NCBI GenBank assembly: GCA_029258835.1
Contig: JAPDJY010000061.1
Location: forward strand, 1 to 27,136
Source of the DNA: Thermoproteota archaeon
GTDB taxonomy: Archaea; Asgardarchaeota; Jordiarchaeia; Jordiarchaeales; Freyrarchaeaceae
Direction of reading: 5' to 3'
Length of the DNA: 27,136 nucleotides
Made by a program: the position numbers and the translations under genes. The notes under the pieces were generated by a model that searched no databases, was not told where the DNA came from, and saw nothing but the letters and a program-made list of their open reading frames with translations. Positions within the stretch are counted from its first letter, which is position 1, and every line of letters begins with the position of its first letter. This document shows positions 16,935-27,136 of the stretch, in pieces.

Positions 16935-17390
16935 CTAGTAGCGCCTACCTTTCCTGTATCCTCCTCTACCGTATCCTGAGGAGAAGTTTGGCCTATAGGT
17001 TCGTCTTTGCCGCTCGTAAACTCTGTCTGATAGGTTGTTTTCCGTGTTAACCTCGATCTCCTGTTCCTCGCCTGGCTCTTCAAGGCTTCCATACTTTCCA
17101 AGGTTTAGCCTTAGGGAGTTTCTGTATATTGTGGTGTAGGCGTTTCTGAGAATGTAGGTGTGGCCTGGCTCCATCCTGTCTATTTCATCATTCCAGAGTG
17201 TCATGTATATACATCCTGTCTCGTCGCCTACTAGGGCGTCGGCAACCCTTAACGTTTCACCTGTTCTCCTAGAAACCACCTCTCTTTCGTCGCCTACCGA
17301 ATCACACTTGACAATAACATTAACGTTTCTAAGGTTCGGTTTGAGGTCGGACACCTTACTAAAACTTGTTTCTTCCAATTTTTGTTCCAT
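16935..17390 (-). CDS. ssb: Single-OB-fold ssDNA-binding protein (crenarchaeal SSB/hSSB1-like)
   Basis: KVSDLKP...VADALVGDETGCIYMTLWN...LNLGKYG...NNLS followed by a Gly/Arg/Tyr-rich tail. BRE-TATA CAAAAGACTTAAAT upstream (about 17463-17476, minus strand). Confidence 0.9.
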   Translation of the reverse strand: MEQKLEETSFSKVSDLKPNLRNVNVIVKCDSVGDEREVVSRRTGETLRVADALVGDETGCIYMTLWNDEIDRMEPGHTYILRNAYTTIYRNSLRLNLGKYGSLEEPGEEQEIEVNTENNLSDRVYERQRRTYRPNFSSGYGRGGYRKGRRY

Positions 17391-17543: not shown

Positions 17544-18665
17544 TTAGCTGCTGGAGGCGGCTAGCTGAGCGCATCTTAAGCCGTTTTTCCTAGCTTCACT
17601 GAGGCATTGGTTGCATGAGATGCACGTCGACTTGGTGGAGGAGCCGTCCTTCCACTTGTTCGGCAGGTTTGGCTCCCTTATCAGGGGCCGGGACATTGAA
17701 ATGAAGTCGGCGTGCCCCTTTCCCAGTATTTCCTCGGCTACTTTTTTGGATCTGATTCCGCCAACCAGTATTAGAGGCGTACCCCCTATCGCCCTTTTAA
17801 CCTCTACTGCTTGGGGGAGAAAGTATGCTTCGTCCTCCTCCCTCGTTATGTTGAACCTTGTGGGTATGAGGTTCCCGTAAAGTGCAGACTCATATATTCC
17901 CCCTGAGACCTCTATCGCGTCGGCGCCAGCCTCAACGACCATCTTGGCGATCTCGGCTGATTCAGGGGTCTTTAACCGGTTCTCGTCGGCCACGCAGTCG
18001 TCCACTTGAAGCTTCACAAGCACCGGCCATTCTCCGCCGCACTCGGCCTTGACGCCATGCACTATTTCCAGCAGGATCCTCGCCCTGTTCTCCGTGCTCC
18101 CCCCATACTCGTCGTTTCTCCTGTTCGAGTAAGGGGAGATGAACTCGGATAGCAGGTATCCGTGGGCGGCGTGGATCTGCACCCCGTCGAAGCCGGCCTT
18201 CTTAACCCTCTTCGCAGCCTCAATAAACGACTCGATGACGGCTTTAACCTCGTCCAAGCTCATCTCCTTAGGGGTGGCATTCATGGTTTTGTCCGGGATA
18301 GGGGATGGTGCTATGAGAACCCCTCCAGTATACTTTGGGTTAGCCTGCCTTCCGCCGTGAGCTATCTGCATAACTATTTTAACTTCCGGGTCGGCCAAGT
18401 GAACCTCCTCAACGACCCTTCTGAGGGGTGGAACACACTCGTCGGAGTGTATTCCCGCTTGACCCTTCATGACGATCCCGTCCTCCCTAACGTAGGCGAA
18501 GCCTGTGATTATGAGGCCGGAGCCTCCTAGGGCAAGCTTCCTGTAAAGGTTGACGTAGCGTTCATCCACGATTCCATTCTCATCTGCAAACCCCTCGTAA
18601 GTAGCAGACCTGACAATCCTGTTCTTAACGGTCATTGAACCTATACTTCCAAGTTCAAAGAGCAA
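17544..18665 (-). CDS. NADH:flavin oxidoreductase (Old Yellow Enzyme family)
   Basis: KNRIVRSAT, QIAHGGRQ, AGFDGVQIHAAHGYLLSEFISP...NRRNDEYGGS, SRPLIREP, and C-terminal CISCNQC. Confidence 0.93.
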   Translation of the reverse strand: MLFELGSIGSMTVKNRIVRSATYEGFADENGIVDERYVNLYRKLALGGSGLIITGFAYVREDGIVMKGQAGIHSDECVPPLRRVVEEVHLADPEVKIVMQIAHGGRQANPKYTGGVLIAPSPIPDKTMNATPKEMSLDEVKAVIESFIEAAKRVKKAGFDGVQIHAAHGYLLSEFISPYSNRRNDEYGGSTENRARILLEIVHGVKAECGGEWPVLVKLQVDDCVADENRLKTPESAEIAKMVVEAGADAIEVSGGIYESALYGNLIPTRFNITREEDEAYFLPQAVEVKRAIGGTPLILVGGIRSKKVAEEILGKGHADFISMSRPLIREPNLPNKWKDGSSTKSTCISCNQCLSEARKNGLRCAQLAASSS

Positions 18666-18969: not shown

Positions 18970-19384
18970 GTGGCGGAGGGATTGGAGGCTAGAAGAGTCT
19001 GCCTGGGCTTCGACGTGCTCATAGACTATCCTAGAGGGCGGCGTGAAGCAGTCGACCACATACGTAGGCTGGAGGAGGCTGCAGTCTTGTCGACCATCTC
19101 GATAAACGCCTTTAAAGTTTATTATGGAGCCTGCAAGAGTGGGAGGGAAAAGAATGTTAGAACGCTAGGGGGCTACGGGGAAGCTTGTGATCCATGTTCA
19201 ACGATGAGGCAGCGGAGGCAGCTGGGAGAACCCTCCAGTTTAGAGTTGAAAGAGGAGGTTGTGTAGTTTAGGGACTTACTTAATATAGGGGCAATTGCAT
19301 GGTTAACAGGTACGCCATACTTACAAGAAACGCCAAGAACTTCAAGAGGATCCCGACCTTACCGTTATAGAGGTGAAACATTGA
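18970..19384 (+). pseudogene. Degraded PIN/VapC toxin gene
   Basis: VCLGFDVLIDY (cf. LDTDVLID) and STISINAFKVYYGA, then across several frameshifts and stops FRDLLNIGAIA, YAILTRNAKNFKRI and DLTVIEVKH*. Confidence 0.8.
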
Positions 19385-19528
19385 GGGGGGAGCATGACGC
19401 TGGACCCCGTTGGGGGAGCAGGAGGAAAAACGTTGAGGGGCCTCCGGTTGGGTCGCTGAGAGAGCTTCCTTCCGTTTCGAAAGTAATATTTTCGTGTTAT
19501 GGTTCTTTTAAGGTGAGAGGGGGAGCAG

Positions 19529-21229
19529 TTGTCGTCTGAGGTTCTGCGTAGGAAAGTGTTGGACGTGATTAACACCGTTGAAAGCCACGGGCTATTCGTA
19601 CACGACAGTAGACTTACTGTTAGGTGCAGGGTTGACGGGAGGGTTGAGACCTGGGAGATGCCCTTAGTTGTCACCCTAGCGGTCCTTAACGCCTTGGTTC
19701 CCAGGGGGGCCATGCTCCTCTACGGGGGGCATGGTGGGGGTAAGACCACTCTCGCGAAGGTCTTAGGGCGTATGATGACTGGGGCGTACCTTTCCGAGGT
19801 GGAGGAGGCAATTGTGCGGGGGCACCCTCAACTCACCGAGGAGAAGATGATTGCCACCCTTAAGCCTGGCAGGCTATTAAGGGATGGGGTTGAGGAGGTT
19901 GTCTGGCGAAGGTTCGTCACGAGCTTCTGGAAGATAGTGGACGAGGTCAACCGTCTCACACCTTACACCCAGAACATCCTCCTTTCGCTGCTCGCCGAGG
20001 GACGCGTCAAGTTTTACGATGCCGTTTACGAGTGTGACTACTTCGTCCTCTACGCCACCCTGAACCCTCAGGACCCGGGAACCTTCGAGATAGGGCTGCC
20101 ATTCCTCGACAGGTTTGGCCTGGCAGCACCCATAACCATGCCCACCATAACAGAGATACCCTTCATCCTTGGAGGACGGGATGAGAGGCTGTACGGATAC
20201 GACCAGTACTACCAGGTTCCCCAGATACTCAGCGTAGAGGAGCTCCTGTCCATTTGGAGGCTGGTGGACGAGGTTGCTGTCGACGACGAAGCTAAGCTTT
20301 TCATAGGGAACGTTATCTCGGAGTTCTCGGCGTGCGACAGGGTGGATAAGGAGAATGCCAGCGTCCTTAGACCTGACACCGGGCTCTGCGACGGATGCCA
20401 CTTTAACACTCCAAAGTCCGTCTGCAATAAGGTTGTTACCCCCCTCAGCGTCAGGGCCGCCAAGGACATGGTGAGGTACTCGAAGGCTTTAGCTTGGCTG
20501 CTTGGACTGGAAAGGGTGACTGTGGAGGTGGTGGACGCCATCGCACCGTTCACCGTATGGCACAGGGTTCGCTACCCCGAATCTATGCTTAGGGAGGCCC
20601 CATACTACGGGGACCCGCTGAAGTTCACGGTGGATTTGATGAGGCTGGTGAGGGAAAGGTACGCGGCGAGGAGGAAAGCCTTGGAGATCTACGAGAAGCT
20701 TAAGGTTGGAGAGGGGGACAGCAAGAACCTTAAAGTGCTGGAGGACTGGGGGAGAAGCGACGTGGTGGTTAAAAGGGAGCTGGCTCCCAAGGCGAAGCTG
20801 TTTGCCAGCGAGCGCTACCGCAAAATAGTTAAGATGCTCGGTAAGGCTGTAAGGTCGAAAAAGGCTGAGATGCTGGAGAAGGTTAGGGATGCCGTGTCTT
20901 CTGAGAGCAGGATTCCAAACAGGTTTGAACTGTTGAGGATGATAGACGAGGCGTTCTACGAGTACACCAGGAGGAGCTACAGGGTGACGTACTTCGACTG
21001 GGTTAACATGGTGTACCCTAAGATAGCCGCAAGGTTTCCAAGCCTTCAAGACCCCCTCAGGGAAACCTTTGACCCGCCGAAGTCAAGGTTCGTTAAAACA
21101 CGAGAGGTAGCCATAGCAGTCCACACGACAGGAAAGAGGGACGACGACCCGGTCTTCATAGAGGTGGCGGGAGGGCGTGCATCGGAGATAGCCGAGGTAG
21201 TCGAGGAGGCTAAGGCGAGGGAGGTGTGA
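19529..21229 (+). CDS. MoxR-family AAA+ ATPase with a Cys-rich insertion and long C-terminal extension
   Basis: Walker A GGHGGGKTT, Walker B KIVDEVNR, QNILLSLLAEG, sensor I ATLNPQD, FLDRF, PLSVRA. Insertion C...CDGCH...C. Confidence 0.9.
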   Translation: MSSEVLRRKVLDVINTVESHGLFVHDSRLTVRCRVDGRVETWEMPLVVTLAVLNALVPRGAMLLYGGHGGGKTTLAKVLGRMMTGAYLSEVEEAIVRGHPQLTEEKMIATLKPGRLLRDGVEEVVWRRFVTSFWKIVDEVNRLTPYTQNILLSLLAEGRVKFYDAVYECDYFVLYATLNPQDPGTFEIGLPFLDRFGLAAPITMPTITEIPFILGGRDERLYGYDQYYQVPQILSVEELLSIWRLVDEVAVDDEAKLFIGNVISEFSACDRVDKENASVLRPDTGLCDGCHFNTPKSVCNKVVTPLSVRAAKDMVRYSKALAWLLGLERVTVEVVDAIAPFTVWHRVRYPESMLREAPYYGDPLKFTVDLMRLVRERYAARRKALEIYEKLKVGEGDSKNLKVLEDWGRSDVVVKRELAPKAKLFASERYRKIVKMLGKAVRSKKAEMLEKVRDAVSSESRIPNRFELLRMIDEAFYEYTRRSYRVTYFDWVNMVYPKIAARFPSLQDPLRETFDPPKSRFVKTREVAIAVHTTGKRDDDPVFIEVAGGRASEIAEVVEEAKAREV

Positions 21230-22938
21230 ACGTGAGGAAGGGCGTAAAGCAGACGGCGTTCGAGGGCGACGTGAAGAGGGCCGTCGCCGGTGCCGCCAGG
21301 AGGGGGGTAATGCTGGCGTTCGAGGATTTCTACTATCCTCCGATTCCAGAGGCGAAGGTTAAGGTTGGCTCAAGGTGGACAAGGTTCTACATAACGGAGG
21401 GGGAGTGGAGGGTTCACTTGGAGGTTAGCGTCGAAGACGTACCATTCCTAGACTACGATGACTTAACCAGGTTTTTCCGCTCCGTCTGCAGGCACGAGGT
21501 CGCCCACTACACCGTCTGCCCCTACGACGTTGCCACGTCAACACTCCTCGTCAGCAGGGCTGCACGCGCAGTTGAACCTAGACATGCACCGTTTGTAGTC
21601 AACTTCTTCACCGACCTAATAGTCGACACGTACCTCTTCGAAAGATACCCGGAGGAAGCGTTATGGACGGAGAGGGTCATCGTAGATCACGTCCACAGGA
21701 AGTTTGGAGGGGGAAGCAAGGTTTGGAAGTTGTTCGTGAGATCATACGAGAAGATTTGGGGTAAACGTATCCTGACAGGTGTGAAGGTGGAGGTTCCCAG
21801 GGACGTGGAGGAGGCAGCTACAAGGATAAGCCGGGTTCTCAAGAGAGGGGGAGTGATGGACGAGAAGGCTTGGCCGGGGAAGGTTGAGAAGCTAGCCAAG
21901 ATCTTGAAGCCTTTCCTAGAGGAAGAGATGGGGGGAAACCCCCCTAAGGGTGTCAGGGGAACGCTCGTTAAAGCCCCGGACGGAGGGAGGGTTTTCCTCC
22001 CGGACGACGTGGCACACACCATGAGGGGAAACCCCGTGGATGCCCCTATGAGAGTTAGGGGTAGGAGGATGGAGGAGGGGGAGAAGGCTGCTAGAAGGTT
22101 TGCTGAGGAAGGGGGGCGCTTGGAAGAGTTCTTGGAGGCATCCAGGATCGCCGGCCTTTCCTCAAGCAGGAGGAAGGCGTTAAGGGCGTGGTACAGGGGT
22201 AAGGCAAACCTTAAAGTTGACGTCAGGGTCAGGTCTCGGAGGAGGGGAGGGCTTCCCGTTTACCCTGACGTTTGGAGGCTTGAGGACCCTATAGACGAGC
22301 TTGACGTCCCCCTCTCCCTTCAGGCTTTCCCGAGGCTGATACCAAACGTCACGACGAAGAAGTGGGTTAGGTTTTCAGGGGAGGGAGGGGAGGGGGAGAG
22401 GAGCCCTCCAGACATGCTGATAGTGCTTGACAGTTCGGGAAGCATGGGGGGAGTGGCGGAGGGAACCCCCTTCGACCTGGCCTTGACGGCTGCCTTCGCG
22501 GCGCTTAAGTTTGCCGTGAGCAGGTGCTGTAAGGTCGCAGCCGTAAACTTCTCGGATAGGACTTTAACCTGCGAGTGGACGCGGAGCAGGGTTCAGGTTG
22601 AAGACGTACTGTTAAGGTATCAGGGTGGCGGAACAGTCCTCCCTGTAAATGAGATCTCTTCCATCGTCAGGAGGAACTCCTGTGAAGTCCTCGTTCTGGT
22701 CATAACGGATGCTGAAATAGCCAACTGGGGTGAAGCAGTTAAGGAGCTTGAAAAGCTGATCGTGGCGGGGCACCACGTAGCCATGTTCTTCATAGGGGGA
22801 GGCATGGGGGGAAGGAAGGAGGAGAGGTACAGGAGGTTCCTGTCGGCTGGGGGAAGAATTTATCCTATCCCAAACGTTAAGAACCTTCCAGAGATCGTCA
22901 TAGGAGAGGTTGGGAAACACTACCATCAGGGCTGGTGA
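21226..22938 (+). CDS. HEXXH metallopeptidase-like N-domain + C-terminal VWA (MIDAS) protein
   Basis: RHEVAHY followed by NFFTDLIVD. MIDAS residues VLDSSGSM, QGGGT and VITDAE. GTGA overlap with the MoxR stop. Confidence 0.88.
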   Translation: MNVRKGVKQTAFEGDVKRAVAGAARRGVMLAFEDFYYPPIPEAKVKVGSRWTRFYITEGEWRVHLEVSVEDVPFLDYDDLTRFFRSVCRHEVAHYTVCPYDVATSTLLVSRAARAVEPRHAPFVVNFFTDLIVDTYLFERYPEEALWTERVIVDHVHRKFGGGSKVWKLFVRSYEKIWGKRILTGVKVEVPRDVEEAATRISRVLKRGGVMDEKAWPGKVEKLAKILKPFLEEEMGGNPPKGVRGTLVKAPDGGRVFLPDDVAHTMRGNPVDAPMRVRGRRMEEGEKAARRFAEEGGRLEEFLEASRIAGLSSSRRKALRAWYRGKANLKVDVRVRSRRRGGLPVYPDVWRLEDPIDELDVPLSLQAFPRLIPNVTTKKWVRFSGEGGEGERSPPDMLIVLDSSGSMGGVAEGTPFDLALTAAFAALKFAVSRCCKVAAVNFSDRTLTCEWTRSRVQVEDVLLRYQGGGTVLPVNEISSIVRRNSCEVLVLVITDAEIANWGEAVKELEKLIVAGHHVAMFFIGGGMGGRKEERYRRFLSAGGRIYPIPNVKNLPEIVIGEVGKHYHQGW

Positions 22939-22952
22939 AAGGTGGGTGACTG

Positions 22953-23791
22953 TTGAGCGAAGGCTGGGACGTGAAGGTTTCCAAGGCGGCTTTAGCCTGC
23001 TGTAGGAGAAGCCTCGAAGCGCTGAAAGTGGTCCTTCAGGCGTGGCTTAGTGGAAGGGAGAAGCTGGAGGAGAGGGGGGTGAAGCCTTTAAGCAGGGTGG
23101 CCATTCTTTCCAGCGAGGGCATGATGGCTAGGGAGGCCGTTGAGCAGCTTCTAAGGGAGATGGGGGTGAAGTTCAGGGAGGAAGGCGGAGGAGGAGGCGA
23201 GCCGGTCGTCTTATCCACTCGTGCAGCAGATCTGGGTGAGGGATACTTCACAATCCTCTTCCTGAGAGGGGGTTGGGGGAGGAGCTTGAAGGGGAATGGT
23301 TGACTATCAGGGTTGGAAAGCCAGGCCTCGCCGAGAGGATCGACGCCATAAAAGTTCTCTCCTCAGGGTTTCTGGGGGGCTTCGACGTTAAAGCGGTCGC
23401 CGAGGCATGCGAGGGCTTCTCCACCCTCGACATAGTGAGGCTTGTCCAGCTGGCTGCCTCCAAGAGTGCGGCTGAGGGGAGAGAGGAGGTTGTAATGGAG
23501 GACTTCCTGGAGAGCATAAGCGTCCTCGGAGGAGAGGGGAGGAGGGGGTTGGAGAGGGCTCCGGACGACTTCTCCGAGCAGCTTTACCTTATGGGGGTAA
23601 GCGAGGGGGAGAAGGATTTCTCAGAGCTAATTCACCGCTTAAACTCCGGCGAGAGGCTTGACAGGAGGCTTGAAAGGCTTCTCGCAAGGTACTCCTTCAT
23701 CCTCCTTGACGAGCCCGAGGAAAGGATAGTTAAGCTTGCGAGGGCTAGGGCAACCCTTGAGAGGATAAGGGGCATGTTTGGAGGGAGATAG
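22953..23791 (+). CDS. Degenerate Cdc48/Vps4-type (classic clade) AAA protein, split by a -1 frameshift at G5 runs (23268-23279)
   Basis: The first ORF (WDV...LEALKVVL...KLEERGVKPLSRVAILSSEGMMAREAVEQLLREMGVKF) follows the WDDI...GIKPPKGVLLYGPPGTGKT...F pattern with a destroyed Walker A. The second ORF (IRVGKPGLAERIDAIK...VKAVAEACEGFSTLDIVRLVQLAA...VVMEDFLESI) is a classic AAA lid. One extra G joins them. Confidence 0.65.
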
Positions 23792-26700
23792 TTGAGGCTT
23801 CGAAAGATAACCATGAAGAACTTCTTAGCCTACGAGTACGAGGAGGTGGAGGTGGCTGAGGAGGGGTTAATGGTTTTCGTAGGGGAGAACGGTGTCGGGA
23901 AGACCAGCATCGCCAGCGCCTTAAGGTTTTGCTTGGGTTCTAACCAGAAGGACCAGAGGTATAGGACCTGGGGGGACTTCATACATAACAGGAGGGGGGC
24001 GAGGAGGGGATGGGTTGAACTGGTGTTTGAGGGGGACGGTGAGAGGGTCGCGTTGAGGAGGGAGGTTAGGAGGGGGCTGCCTCCAAGGTTTTACGTCGAC
24101 GGAAGACGCGCCACCGCAGAGGAGGTTAGAGGGATCGTTCAGGGCAGGATCGGGGTAGACCCGGATAACCCCCTGGTTTTCATCCCCCAGGACAAGATAG
24201 ACGCCGTCGTCACGGAGAGGAGGCCTGAAGTGCTAAGGGACTTCGTGGAGGAGCTTATAGGGCTGGCCGAGAGCAGGAGGATCATAGGTTTAAGGGAGGG
24301 TGAGGTTAGGGAGCTCGTCGCAGCCGAGGAGAGGCTTAAGGCAGACCTTAAAACCATCCAAGAGAGGAAAGCTGCTTTAACCCCCGAGCTGGAGAGACTG
24401 GAGAAGAAGAGGAGGGTGGAGGAAAGGCTCAGGGTGCTTGAGGGGGAGACCCTTTGGAGCATGGTGGAGGAGGCGGAGGCCAGGCTCAAGTCGCTCTTGA
24501 AGCGTGAAGCCGAGGCTTCCGCCAGCGTGGAGGACGCTTACAGGCGATTCAAGGAGGAGGCGGGGAGGGTTGAGAAGGTGAAGGGGAGGGTTGAGGAGGC
24601 AAAGAGGAGGATAGATAAGCTGGAGGGGGAGATGAGGAGGGTTGAGGAGGAGGTAGCCGAGCTAAAGCTGCAGCTGAAAAACGTTATGGGGGAGAGGAGG
24701 AGCGCCGTGGAAACCTTGGAGAAGGGGGAGAGGAGGCTCGAGGAGGTAAGGAGGAGAGTCGAGGATTTAAGGAAGAAGATGGGTGGGGTTAAGGGTGAAG
24801 AGGAAAGGCTTGAGGCGGAGGTTGAGGAGCTTACGGCGAGGAGCAGCGAGCTACTGGAGTTGATAAAGAAGTGCTCTCAGGGTAAGAGGGAGTTCAGGTG
24901 GTGGGAGGAGGAGTGGATAAAGACCCGGGAGGCGTTGGCGAGGGCTGAGGAGGCGTTAAGGGAGGTGGAGGGGGAGGAGAGGAGGGTGGGAGAGGGGCTG
25001 GAAAGGATCAGGGTGGAAATTGCTCTTTGCAGCGAGAGGATAGCCAGGCTGGCTGAGAAGCTTGAGGGATACAGGGAGGAGGAGCTGAAGGGGAGGAGGG
25101 AGGAGTTGGAGGTGGAGAGGAAGACGCTGATGGGTGAGGAGCTAGAGGTGGCAAGGGAGGTAGAAATGGTTGACGCCGCCATAAGGGAGCTTGAGGGGAA
25201 GGTTAGAGACGTTGGCGCCAGGATACCCGAGCAGGTTAGAAGGCTGGAGGAGGAGGTTAGGGCGAGGGGGATGACCGTTGACGGCCCCCTCCTCAAGGTG
25301 ATAGACGTCCCTGAAGAATACGCTGAAGCGGTTGAGGCGGTCTTCGGGAGAAACCTTCTGGCTTTCGTGGCGTTCAGCAAGCCAGACTTCCAGGTTCTCA
25401 AGGAGCTGAGAAGAAGGCATGACGCCTGGTGTACGATTTACATGCCTAGGCAGGGAGGGGAGGAGGAGAGGATGAGCATCGAGGGGGAGGGAGTTATCGG
25501 CTGGCTCGACGAGGTGGTGAGGTTCCCAAGCAGGGTAAAGAACGTCGTTAGGGACATAGGGGGGAGGGCTCTCCTAGTGAGGGATTACAGGACGGCGCTG
25601 ATGCTCAGCGAGAGACACCGCGACGTCAAGTTCGTAACCCTTAAGGGGGAGGTCATCGAGTCAAGAAGGAACGTTGTCCGAAGCCCCTACAGGAAGCCAC
25701 TAAACCTCCTAGGGGTGAAAAGGATCGAGGAGGAGCTAGCTGCCGCCAGGAGGAGGAAGGAGGAGCTGGAGGGGAGGCTGAGGGGGATTAGGGAGAGGCT
25801 GGGCGAGGTGGAGAGGGAGGTCAAGCGAGTGGACGAGAAGCTCAGGATCCTCCCTGAATGGAGGAGGATGCTGGAGGAGAAGGTGAGTCTCGAGGAGGAG
25901 GAGAGGAGGATGAGGGGGGAGGCTGACAGGCTGGCTGCGAGGGCTGGCGAGGCTAGGAGGGAAGTTGAGGAGTGGAGGGAGAAGCTTAAGGAGGTTGAGG
26001 CGAGGAAGCCGGAGAGCTACGCTAAGCTTGAGGAGGAGGAGAGGAGGGCCCAAGACGAGCTGGGGGAGGTTAACGCTAGGCTACGCGCTCTGGAGAGGAA
26101 GCTGAGGAGAGTGAGGGGGGAAAGGGAGGGCATAGCCGTGAGGCTTAGGGAGGCTGAGCTGGAGGAGGAGGCTTTAGCGAGGAACCTCGAAGTTTTAAGG
26201 GATGCCATTAGGGGAAGCGACGAGAAGGCTAGGGTGATAACGGAGAGGATCGAGGAGTTGAGTGAGGAGAGGAGGATGCTGGATGAGGAGAGGAGGAGGT
26301 TGAAGGAGGAAAGGGAGGGGCTGCTCAGGGAGCTTGGAAGGCTGGATGAGAAGGTTAGGAGGATGGAGAGAGAGCTCGGGGACAGGAGAGGGGAGCTTGC
26401 AAGGCTTAGAGAGGAGGCCGAGGTGGTTAGGAAGGAGGTGGAACGGTGGAGGGGGGAGGCGGTGAGCAGGGGGATTAAGAGGCCAGAGGTGATCCGTCCT
26501 CTCCCGGAGATCGAGAGGGAGAGAGCCTTCTTGGAGGAGGAGCTCTCCAAGCTGGCTGATGTCGGCGAGGACGTTCTGGAGGAGTTCAGCGAGTTGGAGA
26601 GGAGGATGGCTGAGGTATCCGCCAAGCTGGAGGAGGTGAGGGGGGAAGTTCAGGAGGTGGTCAGGGTTTTGGAGGAGAAGAAAAGGGAGCACCTTGCCAT

Positions 26701-27136
26701 GCTTGTTGAGGGGGTTGGAAGGGTGGAGGAGGTTGTTAACGGCCTCCTCGAAAAGGTTAACATGAGGTGTAGGATCAGGGTTGTTGGGGGCTACGACGAC
26801 GCAGGGGTGGACGCTGAGATAAGCGTTAGAGGGGGGCCCATGGTCAGCTTGTGGGCTATCAGCGGGGGGGAGCGCAGCATTTTCGCCATAGCGCTCATCG
26901 CAGCCCTCCAGAGGGATTCACGCGTCCCACTAGCTGTTTTCGACGAACCGACGAAGCACCTCGACTTTGCACGCAGCGACCTTGCAGGCAGGATACTGAG
27001 GGAGGCGGCGAGGGGGGAAGTTCAGGAGGTGGTCAGGGTTTTGGAGGAGAAGAAAAGGGAGCACCTTGCCATGCTTGTTGAGGGGGTTGGAAGGGTGGAG
27101 GAGGTTGTTAACGGCCTCCTCGAAAAGGTTAACATG
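23792..27136 (+). CDS. SMC-family ATPase with SMC5/6-type motifs (hinge-containing), C-terminus missing or misassembled
   Basis: Open frame from TTG 23792 to the window end, read codon by codon. MRLRKITMKNF, Walker A GENGVGKT, Q-loop GVDPDNPLVFIPQDKI, coiled coil, hinge VDGPLLKVIDVPEEYAEAVEAVFGRNLLAF...VTLKGE, coiled coil, signature ISGGERS (26858-26878), Walker B/D-loop AVFDEPTKHLD. Confidence 0.92.
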   Translation, partial: MRLRKITMKNFLAYEYEEVEVAEEGLMVFVGENGVGKTSIASALRFCLGSNQKDQRYRTWGDFIHNRRGARRGWVELVFEGDGERVALRREVRRGLPPRFYVDGRRATAEEVRGIVQGRIGVDPDNPLVFIPQDKIDAVVTERRPEVLRDFVEELIGLAESRRIIGLREGEVRELVAAEERLKADLKTIQERKAALTPELERLEKKRRVEERLRVLEGETLWSMVEEAEARLKSLLKREAEASASVEDAYRRFKEEAGRVEKVKGRVEEAKRRIDKLEGEMRRVEEEVAELKLQLKNVMGERRSAVETLEKGERRLEEVRRRVEDLRKKMGGVKGEEERLEAEVEELTARSSELLELIKKCSQGKREFRWWEEEWIKTREALARAEEALREVEGEERRVGEGLERIRVEIALCSERIARLAEKLEGYREEELKGRREELEVERKTLMGEELEVAREVEMVDAAIRELEGKVRDVGARIPEQVRRLEEEVRARGMTVDGPLLKVIDVPEEYAEAVEAVFGRNLLAFVAFSKPDFQVLKELRRRHDAWCTIYMPRQGGEEERMSIEGEGVIGWLDEVVRFPSRVKNVVRDIGGRALLVRDYRTALMLSERHRDVKFVTLKGEVIESRRNVVRSPYRKPLNLLGVKRIEEELAAARRRKEELEGRLRGIRERLGEVEREVKRVDEKLRILPEWRRMLEEKVSLEEEERRMRGEADRLAARAGEARREVEEWREKLKEVEARKPESYAKLEEEERRAQDELGEVNARLRALERKLRRVRGEREGIAVRLREAELEEEALARNLEVLRDAIRGSDEKARVITERIEELSEERRMLDEERRRLKEEREGLLRELGRLDEKVRRMERELGDRRGELARLREEAEVVRKEVERWRGEAVSRGIKRPEVIRPLPEIERERAFLEEELSKLADVGEDVLEEFSELERRMAEVSAKLEEVRGEVQEVVRVLEEKKREHLAMLVEGVGRVEEVVNGLLEKVNMRCRIRVVGGYDDAGVDAEISVRGGPMVSLWAISGGERSIFAIALIAALQRDSRVPLAVFDEPTKHLDFARSDLAGRILREAARGEVQEVVRVLEEKKREHLAMLVEGVGRVEEVVNGLLEKVNM
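27010..27136 (+). repeat. Exact 127-bp direct repeat of 26638-26764 at the window end
   Basis: GAGGGGGGAAGTTCAGGAGG...AAGGTTAACATG is identical in both places. The offset is 372 bp, so the copy is in frame. Confidence 0.95.

Follow-up and report, generated by a model that had tools for sequence, protein, structure and literature searches.

An SMC-kleisin-kite unit with a dead AAA gene adjoins a MoxR ATPase and a HExxH/VWA adaptor in several Asgard lineages

The 27,136-nt stretch of DNA analyzed here (hereafter the window) is the entire contig C35 of a metagenome-assembled genome (MAG; G000, 2.72 Mb in 91 contigs, 94.7% completeness, 6% contamination), and it ends inside a six-gene operon of Asgard (Jordarchaeia-like) archaea. 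The six genes encode a MoxR-type AAA+ ATPase, an adaptor that combines a zincin motif (HExxH) with a VWA domain and its metal ion-dependent adhesion site (MIDAS), a pseudo-AAA protein, an SMC paralogue (SMCp), a kleisin-like protein and a kite-like winged-helix protein. The pseudo-AAA, SMC, kleisin and kite genes are a fixed unit, and this unit adjoins the MoxR-VWA pair in four Asgard lineages and in two orientations. The arrangement is far beyond chance and recurs in dozens of Asgard genomes. The preferred explanation, to which a probability of roughly 0.55 is given, is that SMC, kleisin, kite and the dead AAA protein form a chromosomal, SMC5/6-related holo-complex that is remodelled by the MoxR-VWA pair, in a housekeeping rather than an anti-phage role. 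SMC complexes need loaders and unloaders, and to our knowledge almost nothing is known about them in archaea. The MoxR-VWA link may throw light on the loading or release of SMC rings in those archaea that are most closely related to eukaryotes.

In the window, the ORF (open reading frame) calls give four tightly packed reading frames on the plus strand, from 19529 to the contig end. The features of this part are as follows.

19480-19528, plus strand: candidate promoter and leader, read by eye
19529-21229, plus strand: MoxR-type AAA+ ATPase, 566 aa, with Pfam AAA_5 and AAA_lid_2
21226-22938, plus strand: HExxH/VWA-MIDAS adaptor, 570 aa, with weak Pfam VWA_2/VWA_CoxE matches
22953-23791, plus strand: pseudo-AAA (dead classical AAA), present here as two ORFs (22953-23303 and 23273-23791), with Pfam AAA_lid_3
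23792-27016, then contig end, plus strand: SMC paralogue (SMCp), with SMC_N and SMC_hinge, C-terminus cut off
27001-27136, no strand: terminal duplicate of 26629-26764 (134/136 identical), an assembly artefact

Conservation of the Gene Order

A first-pass annotation, made from the letters of the window alone, had suggested that the four genes belong together and may be a conserved module. A neighbourhood survey of relatives bears this out, since order and adjacency are kept. Among the named relatives, a Candidatus Jordarchaeales MAG is the nearest; others are Baldrarchaeum, many Thorarchaeota, Hermodarchaeota and Loki-like 'Promethearchaeota'. Two genomes of the same family and Baldrarchaeum have the order MoxR, VWA, pseudo-AAA, SMC, a gene of ~190 aa and a gene of ~155 aa, with all six genes on one strand and overlaps or gaps of a few nt. 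In Thorarchaeota, the MoxR-VWA pair stands head-to-head (divergent) with the pseudo-AAA-SMC-kleisin-kite unit. The proposal of a single coupled operon therefore holds for the Jordarchaeia and Baldrarchaeum, where the genes are co-directional, but not for Thorarchaeota, so that it is a lineage-specific description.

Hidden Markov models built from the first eight loci were used to scan 80 loci retrieved with the VWA protein. The MoxR gene adjoins the VWA gene in 70 of these 80 loci, and most of the remaining loci have the VWA gene at the end of a contig. When the Jord/Baldr/Thor/Hermod-labelled group is defined by a VWA score of at least 600 bits, and only loci with enough flank are taken as testable, the pseudo-AAA and SMCp genes are found beside MoxR in 44 of 46 loci. 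A whole-genome sample of 150 Asgard genomes, whose families are labelled f1 and so on, gives a consistent picture: strong VWA-zincin matches and pseudo-AAA orthologues are common to families f1, f7, f8, f9 and f26, and most other families lack both. In f7, a Thorarchaeota family, the two genes lie no more than 3 kb apart in 21 of 22 genomes. Two Promethearchaeum sp. genomes contain no pseudo-AAA orthologue at E 1e-30, so that the family could not be tied to the published operon of the cultured species.

The adjacency has outlasted an inversion, being co-directional in Jordarchaeia and Baldrarchaeum and head-to-head in Thorarchaeota. It has also outlasted insertions in some Thorarchaeota loci, where a gene for an MFS-type transporter separates the kleisin-like gene from the kite-like one, and a gene for a ~325-aa membrane protein separates pseudo-AAA from MoxR. 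The cluster is single-copy and is present throughout whole families, and its sequence divergence follows the taxonomic steps of the sample from family to order to phylum.

A second association concerns the canonical SMC. The MoxR/VWA-zincin pair is arranged tail-to-tail with a canonical SMC-ScpB pair in five loci, four of a Loki-like lineage and one of f23 (L064:8141-15836 and L131:5043-12981, also L057, L066 and L107). The canonical SMC at these loci has 1195-1205 aa, and ScpB is matched by PF04079 at 3.8e-17 and 2.4e-21. One of these genomes, G153, carries the SMCp unit elsewhere. This association may support a general link between MoxR-VWA pairs and SMC complexes in Asgard archaea, and it may trace to a single ancestral arrangement.

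The SMC Paralogue and Its Kleisin-like and Kite-like Partners

SMCp matches SMC_N at 91.7 bits (cut-off 40; residues 3-1091) and SMC_hinge at 41.7 bits (cut-off 22.5; residues 496-605). Its Walker A, Q-loop (Q133), SGGE signature and Walker B DE are all conserved, and the orthologues in eight relatives have 1117-1161 aa. The genome G000 holds two further SMC operons (C4:4974-9771 and C25:4588-9352), each with ScpA-like and ScpB-like genes. SMCp is a different paralogue from the SMCs of C4 and C25, which makes three SMC operons in all. The relative G001 has only two hinge-bearing SMCs, and the C25 copy of G000 is to be viewed against the 6% contamination of this MAG.

The relationship to SMC5/6 was considered from profile scores. 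The SMCp profile scores 228 bits with SMC3, 218 with SMC2, 172 with SMC5 and 146 with SMC6, and the profile of the canonical Asgard SMC scores 507 with SMC3, ~99 with SMC6 and <95 with SMC5. Thus, the best raw scores of SMCp are still to SMC1-4, although it exceeds the canonical SMC for SMC5 and SMC6. This crude, tree-free comparison suggests that SMCp is nearer to SMC5/6 than the canonical SMC is. The 'SMC5/6-like' label given to the gene in the first-pass annotation is thereby partly upheld: SMCp is a second-type paralogue whose profile beats the canonical one on SMC5 and SMC6, but the highest raw scores go to SMC1-4. The complex is probably the archaeal counterpart of eukaryotic SMC5/6.

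Kleisin and KITE genes, which had been sought around the four genes, are represented by the kleisin-like and kite-like genes found just downstream in every relative, and on another contig (C79) of the same genome. Their position and size are conserved among loci. In the kleisin-like protein, the C-terminal 55 columns align with the C-terminus (winged-helix end) of the canonical Asgard ScpA (hhalign probability 68.6%, E 4.6e-5); in whole-genome searches, neither the ScpA nor the Nse4_C model hit the gene. The kite-like protein gives weak winged-helix matches (Lrs14-like at 0.0012, and HVO_A0114 in 8 of 15 members), and its alignment with ScpB is colinear but weak (hhalign probability 16.7%). 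Searches of both proteins against Pfam and NCBIfam, as single proteins and as 15-member alignments, and against PDB profiles gave nothing beyond weak winged-helix matches. A database search with the kite alignment returned only unannotated Asgard 'hypothetical proteins'.

The Pseudo-AAA Protein, the MoxR ATPase and the VWA Adaptor

The identities given earlier to the four genes (a MoxR AAA+, a HExxH-VWA protein, a dead AAA and a hinge-bearing SMC) agree with their domains, motifs and folds. In the alignment, all pseudo-AAA orthologues lack Lys in Walker A and DE in Walker B. Those of Thorarchaeota have GxxGTD[FL] without Lys and [ED]x in place of DE, and the Jordarchaeia orthologues are still more degenerate. 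As judged from these motifs, the protein is a pseudo-ATPase throughout the family. The orthologue of G002 was modelled by AlphaFold2 (AF2) with a pLDDT value (predicted local distance difference test) of 92 as an AAA module of the classical clade. Its fold matches have Z 12-14 and include Pex1/6 (14.0), the i-AAA protease (13.8) and p97 (13.6), as well as FtsH, and Foldseek gives E ~1e-5 to PAN/Rpt. The lid superposes on that of Rpt6 with a root-mean-square deviation (rmsd) of 1.1 over 71 residues. At the sequence level, PF00004 matches a Thorarchaeota orthologue at 6.2e-8.

The most conserved part of the pseudo-AAA protein is a helical C-terminal domain of ~80 aa, whose family is small: 1.84 billion proteins yield no more than 109 representative clusters of it. 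The remote members of this family, on contigs with a GC content of 26-64%, lie directly upstream of SMCp, and kleisin-like and kite-like genes come next where the contig continues. Two further observations concern relatives of this protein. First, genomes of family f2, which belongs to the same order as the genome of the window, encode a pseudo-AAA relative of 463-480 aa (E about 1e-27; for example G006:C1:1915104-1918390). It stands directly upstream of a shortened SMC-like protein of ~851 aa, and the VWA-zincin was not found in those six f2 genomes. Second, in a GC-rich remote lineage (L129:3-1772), a Peptidase_M6 gene of the immune inhibitor A type is divergent upstream of the pseudo-AAA-like gene, in the place of MoxR; this is probably coincidental.

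The MoxR protein is matched by AAA_5 (39.2 bits, cut-off 22) and AAA_lid_2 (25.5 bits, cut-off 22.7), and its best solved relative by sequence in PDB is the MoxR protein 2r44. The Walker A sequence GGHGGGKT, the Walker B residues D138 and E139, N179, R195 and R309 are invariant in 13 orthologues, and the arginine finger and the sensor residues are among the invariant positions. By these motifs, the protein is a MoxR-class AAA+ ATPase with an intact catalytic apparatus and an adjacent VWA partner. A Cys-rich insert in the lid region forms a Cys/His cluster (C269/C287/C290/H291/C299) that is likewise invariant in the 13 orthologues, and the protein has a C-terminal extension of ~200 aa.

The VWA protein consists of two domains: a helical one at the N-terminus, with HExxH, and a VWA domain at the C-terminus, in which the MIDAS is complete. 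H90, E91, H94, D402, S404, S406, T470 and D495 are invariant in 30 sequences (alignments A1 and A5). Pfam scores for VWA are under the cut-off (16 bits), but the fold is supported by an AF2 model (pLDDT 84), which matches ArnB (Z 16.1, rmsd 2.6 over 164 residues), NorD (Z 15.2) and the MIDAS domain of Rea1/MDN1 (Z 14). The HExxH motif is located in helix 77-96, after a small sheet (strands 44-67), and the invariant D101 and D130 are candidates for the third zinc ligand. The lists obtained in fold searches with the whole model are filled by the VWA domain, so that they give no reading on the zincin domain. The two-domain shape is also found in bacterial Atlas clusters (template modelling score 0.68-0.75), and in one of these look-alike clusters 13% of the members have Peptidase_M48, which is a lead only. 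An Atlas feature search with the N-terminal domain gave scores of 0.87-0.91, including a DUF2201_N cluster at 0.87; these are also no more than leads. Judged by its motif, the N-terminal domain, which is conserved, may contribute cleavage as a further step.

Proposed Function and Alternatives

MoxR-VWA pairs such as CbbQ-CbbO, NorQ-NorD, RavA-ViaA and Rea1 remodel a target complex that is bound via the MIDAS. The most likely mechanism, modelled on CbbQ-CbbO, NorQ-NorD and Rea1, is the following. SMC, kleisin, kite and the dead AAA protein would make up an SMC holo-complex that is chromosomal and SMC5/6-related. The MIDAS of the VWA protein would grip an acidic residue or a peptide on this holo-complex, the pseudo-AAA protein and the kleisin being the likeliest targets, and the active MoxR hexamer would exert force through the VWA protein by ATP hydrolysis. 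As a result, the SMC complex would be assembled, loaded onto DNA or released from DNA, and the HExxH domain may contribute cleavage. The putative complex would be one with a dedicated dead-AAA subunit. In several Asgard lineages, its genes are neighbours of those for a MoxR motor and a MIDAS adaptor that carries a protease motif. A functional link would represent a new class of SMC regulator and would give MoxR-VWA pairs a DNA-organising client. It would also make available, from the archaea most closely related to eukaryotes, a small set of six thermostable proteins for reconstitution.

Several points weigh against this proposal. The Loki-like family f9 holds both parts, always on different contigs, and therefore the linkage of MoxR-VWA with the SMC unit is not obligatory. 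Relatives of the VWA-zincin occur without pseudo-AAA and SMCp in f23 and f19. Together with the bacterial look-alikes, these suggest further clients of the pair or a broader function. Because genomes from the same lineage are not independent of each other, the counts overstate the number of independent events. The kleisin and kite genes are identified from their position and size, from weak profile matches (68.6% and 16.7%) and from the literature. Finally, no physical or predicted contact of MoxR or VWA with any subunit of the SMC complex is on record. A complex prediction with the VWA-zincin, pseudo-AAA and kleisin-like proteins of G002 scored 0.00, which is evidence neither for nor against binding.

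The foremost alternative is that the genes are neighbours by inherited synteny only, and that MoxR and the VWA-zincin serve another client, for example in metal-cofactor insertion or in general complex assembly. The lack of linkage in all f9 genomes that hold both parts, the VWA-zincins of f23 and f19 without an SMC unit and the bacterial structural look-alikes are what such a history would leave. So is the fact that Group-B (Loki-like) MoxR-VWA pairs reside in another conserved neighbourhood, with GatC, a HAD hydrolase and unknowns. However, an adjacency without shared function would not be expected to outlast an inversion and insertions of unrelated genes, or to be kept in 44 of 46 loci and in 21 of 22 f7 genomes. 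Moreover, where the pair is away from SMCp, it adjoins canonical SMC-ScpB in two lineages, which is unlikely for an unrelated pair. Taken together, an absence of shared function is judged unlikely.

A stronger form of the remodelling mechanism is that MoxR and the HExxH/VWA adaptor are an ATP-driven unloader and protease of the SMC ring, in which the MIDAS would grip the kleisin or the pseudo-AAA protein, MoxR would pull and the zincin would cut. Ring opening would then be functionally analogous to the action of separase, or of p97-SPRTN, on chromatin-bound complexes, and the same machine might also act on the canonical Smc-ScpB where the pair adjoins that operon. The archaeal lineage closest to eukaryotes would then possess a machine for the regulated release of SMC, but as a specific proposal this is improbable.

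A role in anti-plasmid or anti-phage DNA surveillance, in which a MoxR-vWA 'thresholding' pair together with an inactive NTPase would gate a Wadjet- or Lamassu-like SMC sensor, is considered very improbable. In bacterial MoxR-vWA ternary conflict systems, the third component can indeed be an inactive NTPase or a classical AAA of the FtsH type (PMC7159879), the SMC has partial PADLOC matches to LmuB, mad3 and JetC, and the Thorarchaeota pseudo-AAA weakly matches the anti-phage IetA/IteA models. However, the SMC matches reflect generic similarity of the ABC head and coiled coil and are far weaker than those to chromosomal SMC models, and PADLOC gave no match for MoxR, VWA, the G002 pseudo-AAA, the kleisin-like or the kite-like protein (five of the six products). 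The cluster contains no nuclease of the JetD/MksG type, no peptidase effector and no variable module, and no nuclease, variable genes or defence-island context was seen in or beside it at any examined locus. Its flanks are of the housekeeping kind, and it is present in single copy family-wide, with a divergence that follows the taxonomic steps of the sample. Because effectors and nucleases are absent, PADLOC matches are poor, the neighbours are housekeeping genes and the cluster is single-copy and family-wide, a housekeeping role is favoured, and the Wadjet/Lamassu-like defence against foreign DNA raised in the first-pass annotation is disfavoured.

Gene Junctions, Neighbours and the Contig End

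The ORF calls confirm the four same-strand genes and the junctions that had been described between them. The MoxR and VWA genes overlap by GTGA (21226-21229). Between the VWA and pseudo-AAA genes lies a purine-rich spacer of 14 nt (22939-22952) with a GGTGGGTGA-type Shine-Dalgarno (SD) sequence, and the pseudo-AAA stop codon TAG (23789-23791) stands immediately before the SMC start codon TTG (23792). The sole sizeable intergenic gap preceding the cluster, at 19267-19528, holds the candidate promoter. By eye, an A/T-rich TATA-like box is seen at 19483-19492, ~40 nt 5' of the MoxR start codon, and a purine-rich SD-like run at 19510-19525 ahead of the MoxR gene. Short pieces of MoxR, VWA and SMC are found at 100% identity in the metatranscriptome contigs X17 and X18; these give no information on transcription, strand or co-transcription.

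The pseudo-AAA gene of the window is frameshifted by 1 nt near 23260-23262, and appears as two overlapping ORFs in different frames. One extra C is present behind 23260 in two independent metagenome assemblies of ~99% identical strains, made from public sequencing runs of a hydrothermal vent and a sediment (X1 and X2), so that the CC run of the window at 23260-23262 reads CCC there. With the extra C, the gene becomes a single ORF of 279 aa, and the single ORF of relatives has 271-315 aa. An earlier idea that the frameshift occurs at tandem G5 runs is ruled out; the defect is the missing C at 23260-23262 instead.

At the 3' end, the X1 and X2 contigs match the window up to 27016 only, and are followed by 450-500 nt of other sequence. 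Because these assemblies diverge after 27016, the segment 27001-27136 is an assembly artefact and not the true 3' end of SMC. The artefactual copy adds ~40 false residues to the printed SMC ORF, and the SMC in the window is short of its last ~45-55 residues (orthologues 1117-1131 aa). Contig C79 starts with the C-terminal end of the kleisin-like gene and the whole kite-like gene, and therefore the operon carries on across the assembly gap. Decay of the cluster into a non-functional system in this genome, to which the open 3' end and the frameshift at 23260-23262 might point, is very unlikely: the truncation is a contig break with the rest of the operon at the start of C79, the pseudo-AAA gene is intact in two near-identical populations, the remaining ORFs are all intact, and a 1-nt homopolymer miscall in the MAG is the simpler explanation.

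The neighbours of the cluster include an SSB-like OB protein, an OYE-type (Old Yellow Enzyme) oxidoreductase, a cysteinyl-tRNA synthetase (CysRS), a NYN RNase and a KaiC-like ATPase. Upstream of the cluster in the window, the following genes keep their synteny in two same-family genomes.

16935-17390, minus strand: SSB-like OB-fold protein
17544-18665, minus strand: OYE-type NADH:flavin oxidoreductase
18970-19266: small unannotated ORF

Beyond the operon, C79 encodes an apolipoprotein-like helical repeat protein of at least 751 aa (C79:745-3000, L118), convergent with the kite-like gene, and its C-terminal part is ~80% identical to the product of a gene at the equal position in G002. In Thorarchaeota, a protein of ~120 aa encoded 3' of the kite-like gene (L034:1-301, L035:1701-2069, L039:1263-1622 and L070:1570-1929) contains CxxC...CxxC and resembles, by eye, a TFIIB-type zinc ribbon.

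Comparison with Known Systems

A second, SMC5/6-related SMC-kleisin-kite operon with a non-ScpB kite has been published for TACK and Asgard archaea, and Jordarchaeia are included in the table of that study (van Hooff, Raas, Tromer, Eme, bioRxiv 10.1101/2024.01.07.573240). The system described here is alike in having a second hinge-bearing SMC besides the canonical Smc-ScpA-ScpB (10.1101/2024.01.07.573240; Yoshinaga and Inagaki 2021, PMC8665677). It likewise has the order SMC, kleisin (~190-220 aa) and kite (~155-180 aa), with a kite that is not ScpB-like. The likeness is seen in the operon and in the profile scores. In contrast to the published operons, a pseudo-AAA gene always precedes the SMC gene here, and the MoxR/VWA-zincin pair is linked in four lineages. 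MoxR, VWA and AAA are unmentioned in the main text of that study, and VWA is unmentioned in its supplements; a full-text literature search found nothing relevant linking MoxR or von Willebrand to an Asgard SMC. Thus, the SMC-kleisin-kite part is already published, and no description of its link with MoxR-VWA and the pseudo-AAA was found.

Among archaeal SMC-related proteins, coalescin (ClsN) is an ASRP (PMC11344861), a short archaea-specific SMC-related protein, whereas the SMC here has full-length arms and a hinge. An identity with ASRP is rejected: the SMC fails the NCBIfam ASRP model (107.5 bits, cut-off 300), with a match to residues 23-488 only. The suggestion in the first-pass annotation that ClsN has AAA/VWA neighbours gained no support, as the review PMC11344861 mentions none.

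Wadjet (JetABCD), MksBEFG and Lamassu share with this cluster an SMC-family ATPase and kleisin-like and kite-like partners in one operon. Unlike them, the cluster has no JetD/MksG nuclease and no LmuA effector, its SMC carries a hinge of the canonical type and finds its best matches among chromosomal SMC models, and its setting is a housekeeping one. In concept, the nearest precedent for a MoxR-vWA pair with an inactive NTPase is provided by the MoxR-vWA ternary conflict systems, which are bacterial and enriched in multicellular forms (Kaur, Burroughs, Iyer, Aravind 2020, PMC7159879). Their FtsH and iSTAND types share the MoxR-vWA pair and a third protein with a dead NTPase domain (PMC7159879), and in the FtsH type the dead domain is of the classical AAA clade (PMC7159879), as is the pseudo-AAA here. 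However, they carry effectors, EAD adaptor domains and ubiquitin-like (Ubl)/peptide-processing modules, none of which is present here, and SMC is absent from the text of PMC7159879.

The remaining comparison is with the MoxR/VWA remodellers CbbQ-CbbO, NorQ-NorD, RavA-ViaA, CoxD-CoxE and Rea1/Midasin. Here too, an AAA_5-type ATPase with intact motifs is encoded beside a VWA protein with a full MIDAS, and the VWA model resembles NorD (Z 15.2) and the Rea1/MDN1 MIDAS domain (Z 14), which are domains that work with MoxR-class rings. The adaptor here differs in its N-terminal HExxH domain, and the ATPase in its Cys/His insert and long C-terminal extension. The known clients of such remodellers are a metalloenzyme, Rubisco and the pre-ribosome, whereas the presumed client here is an SMC complex.

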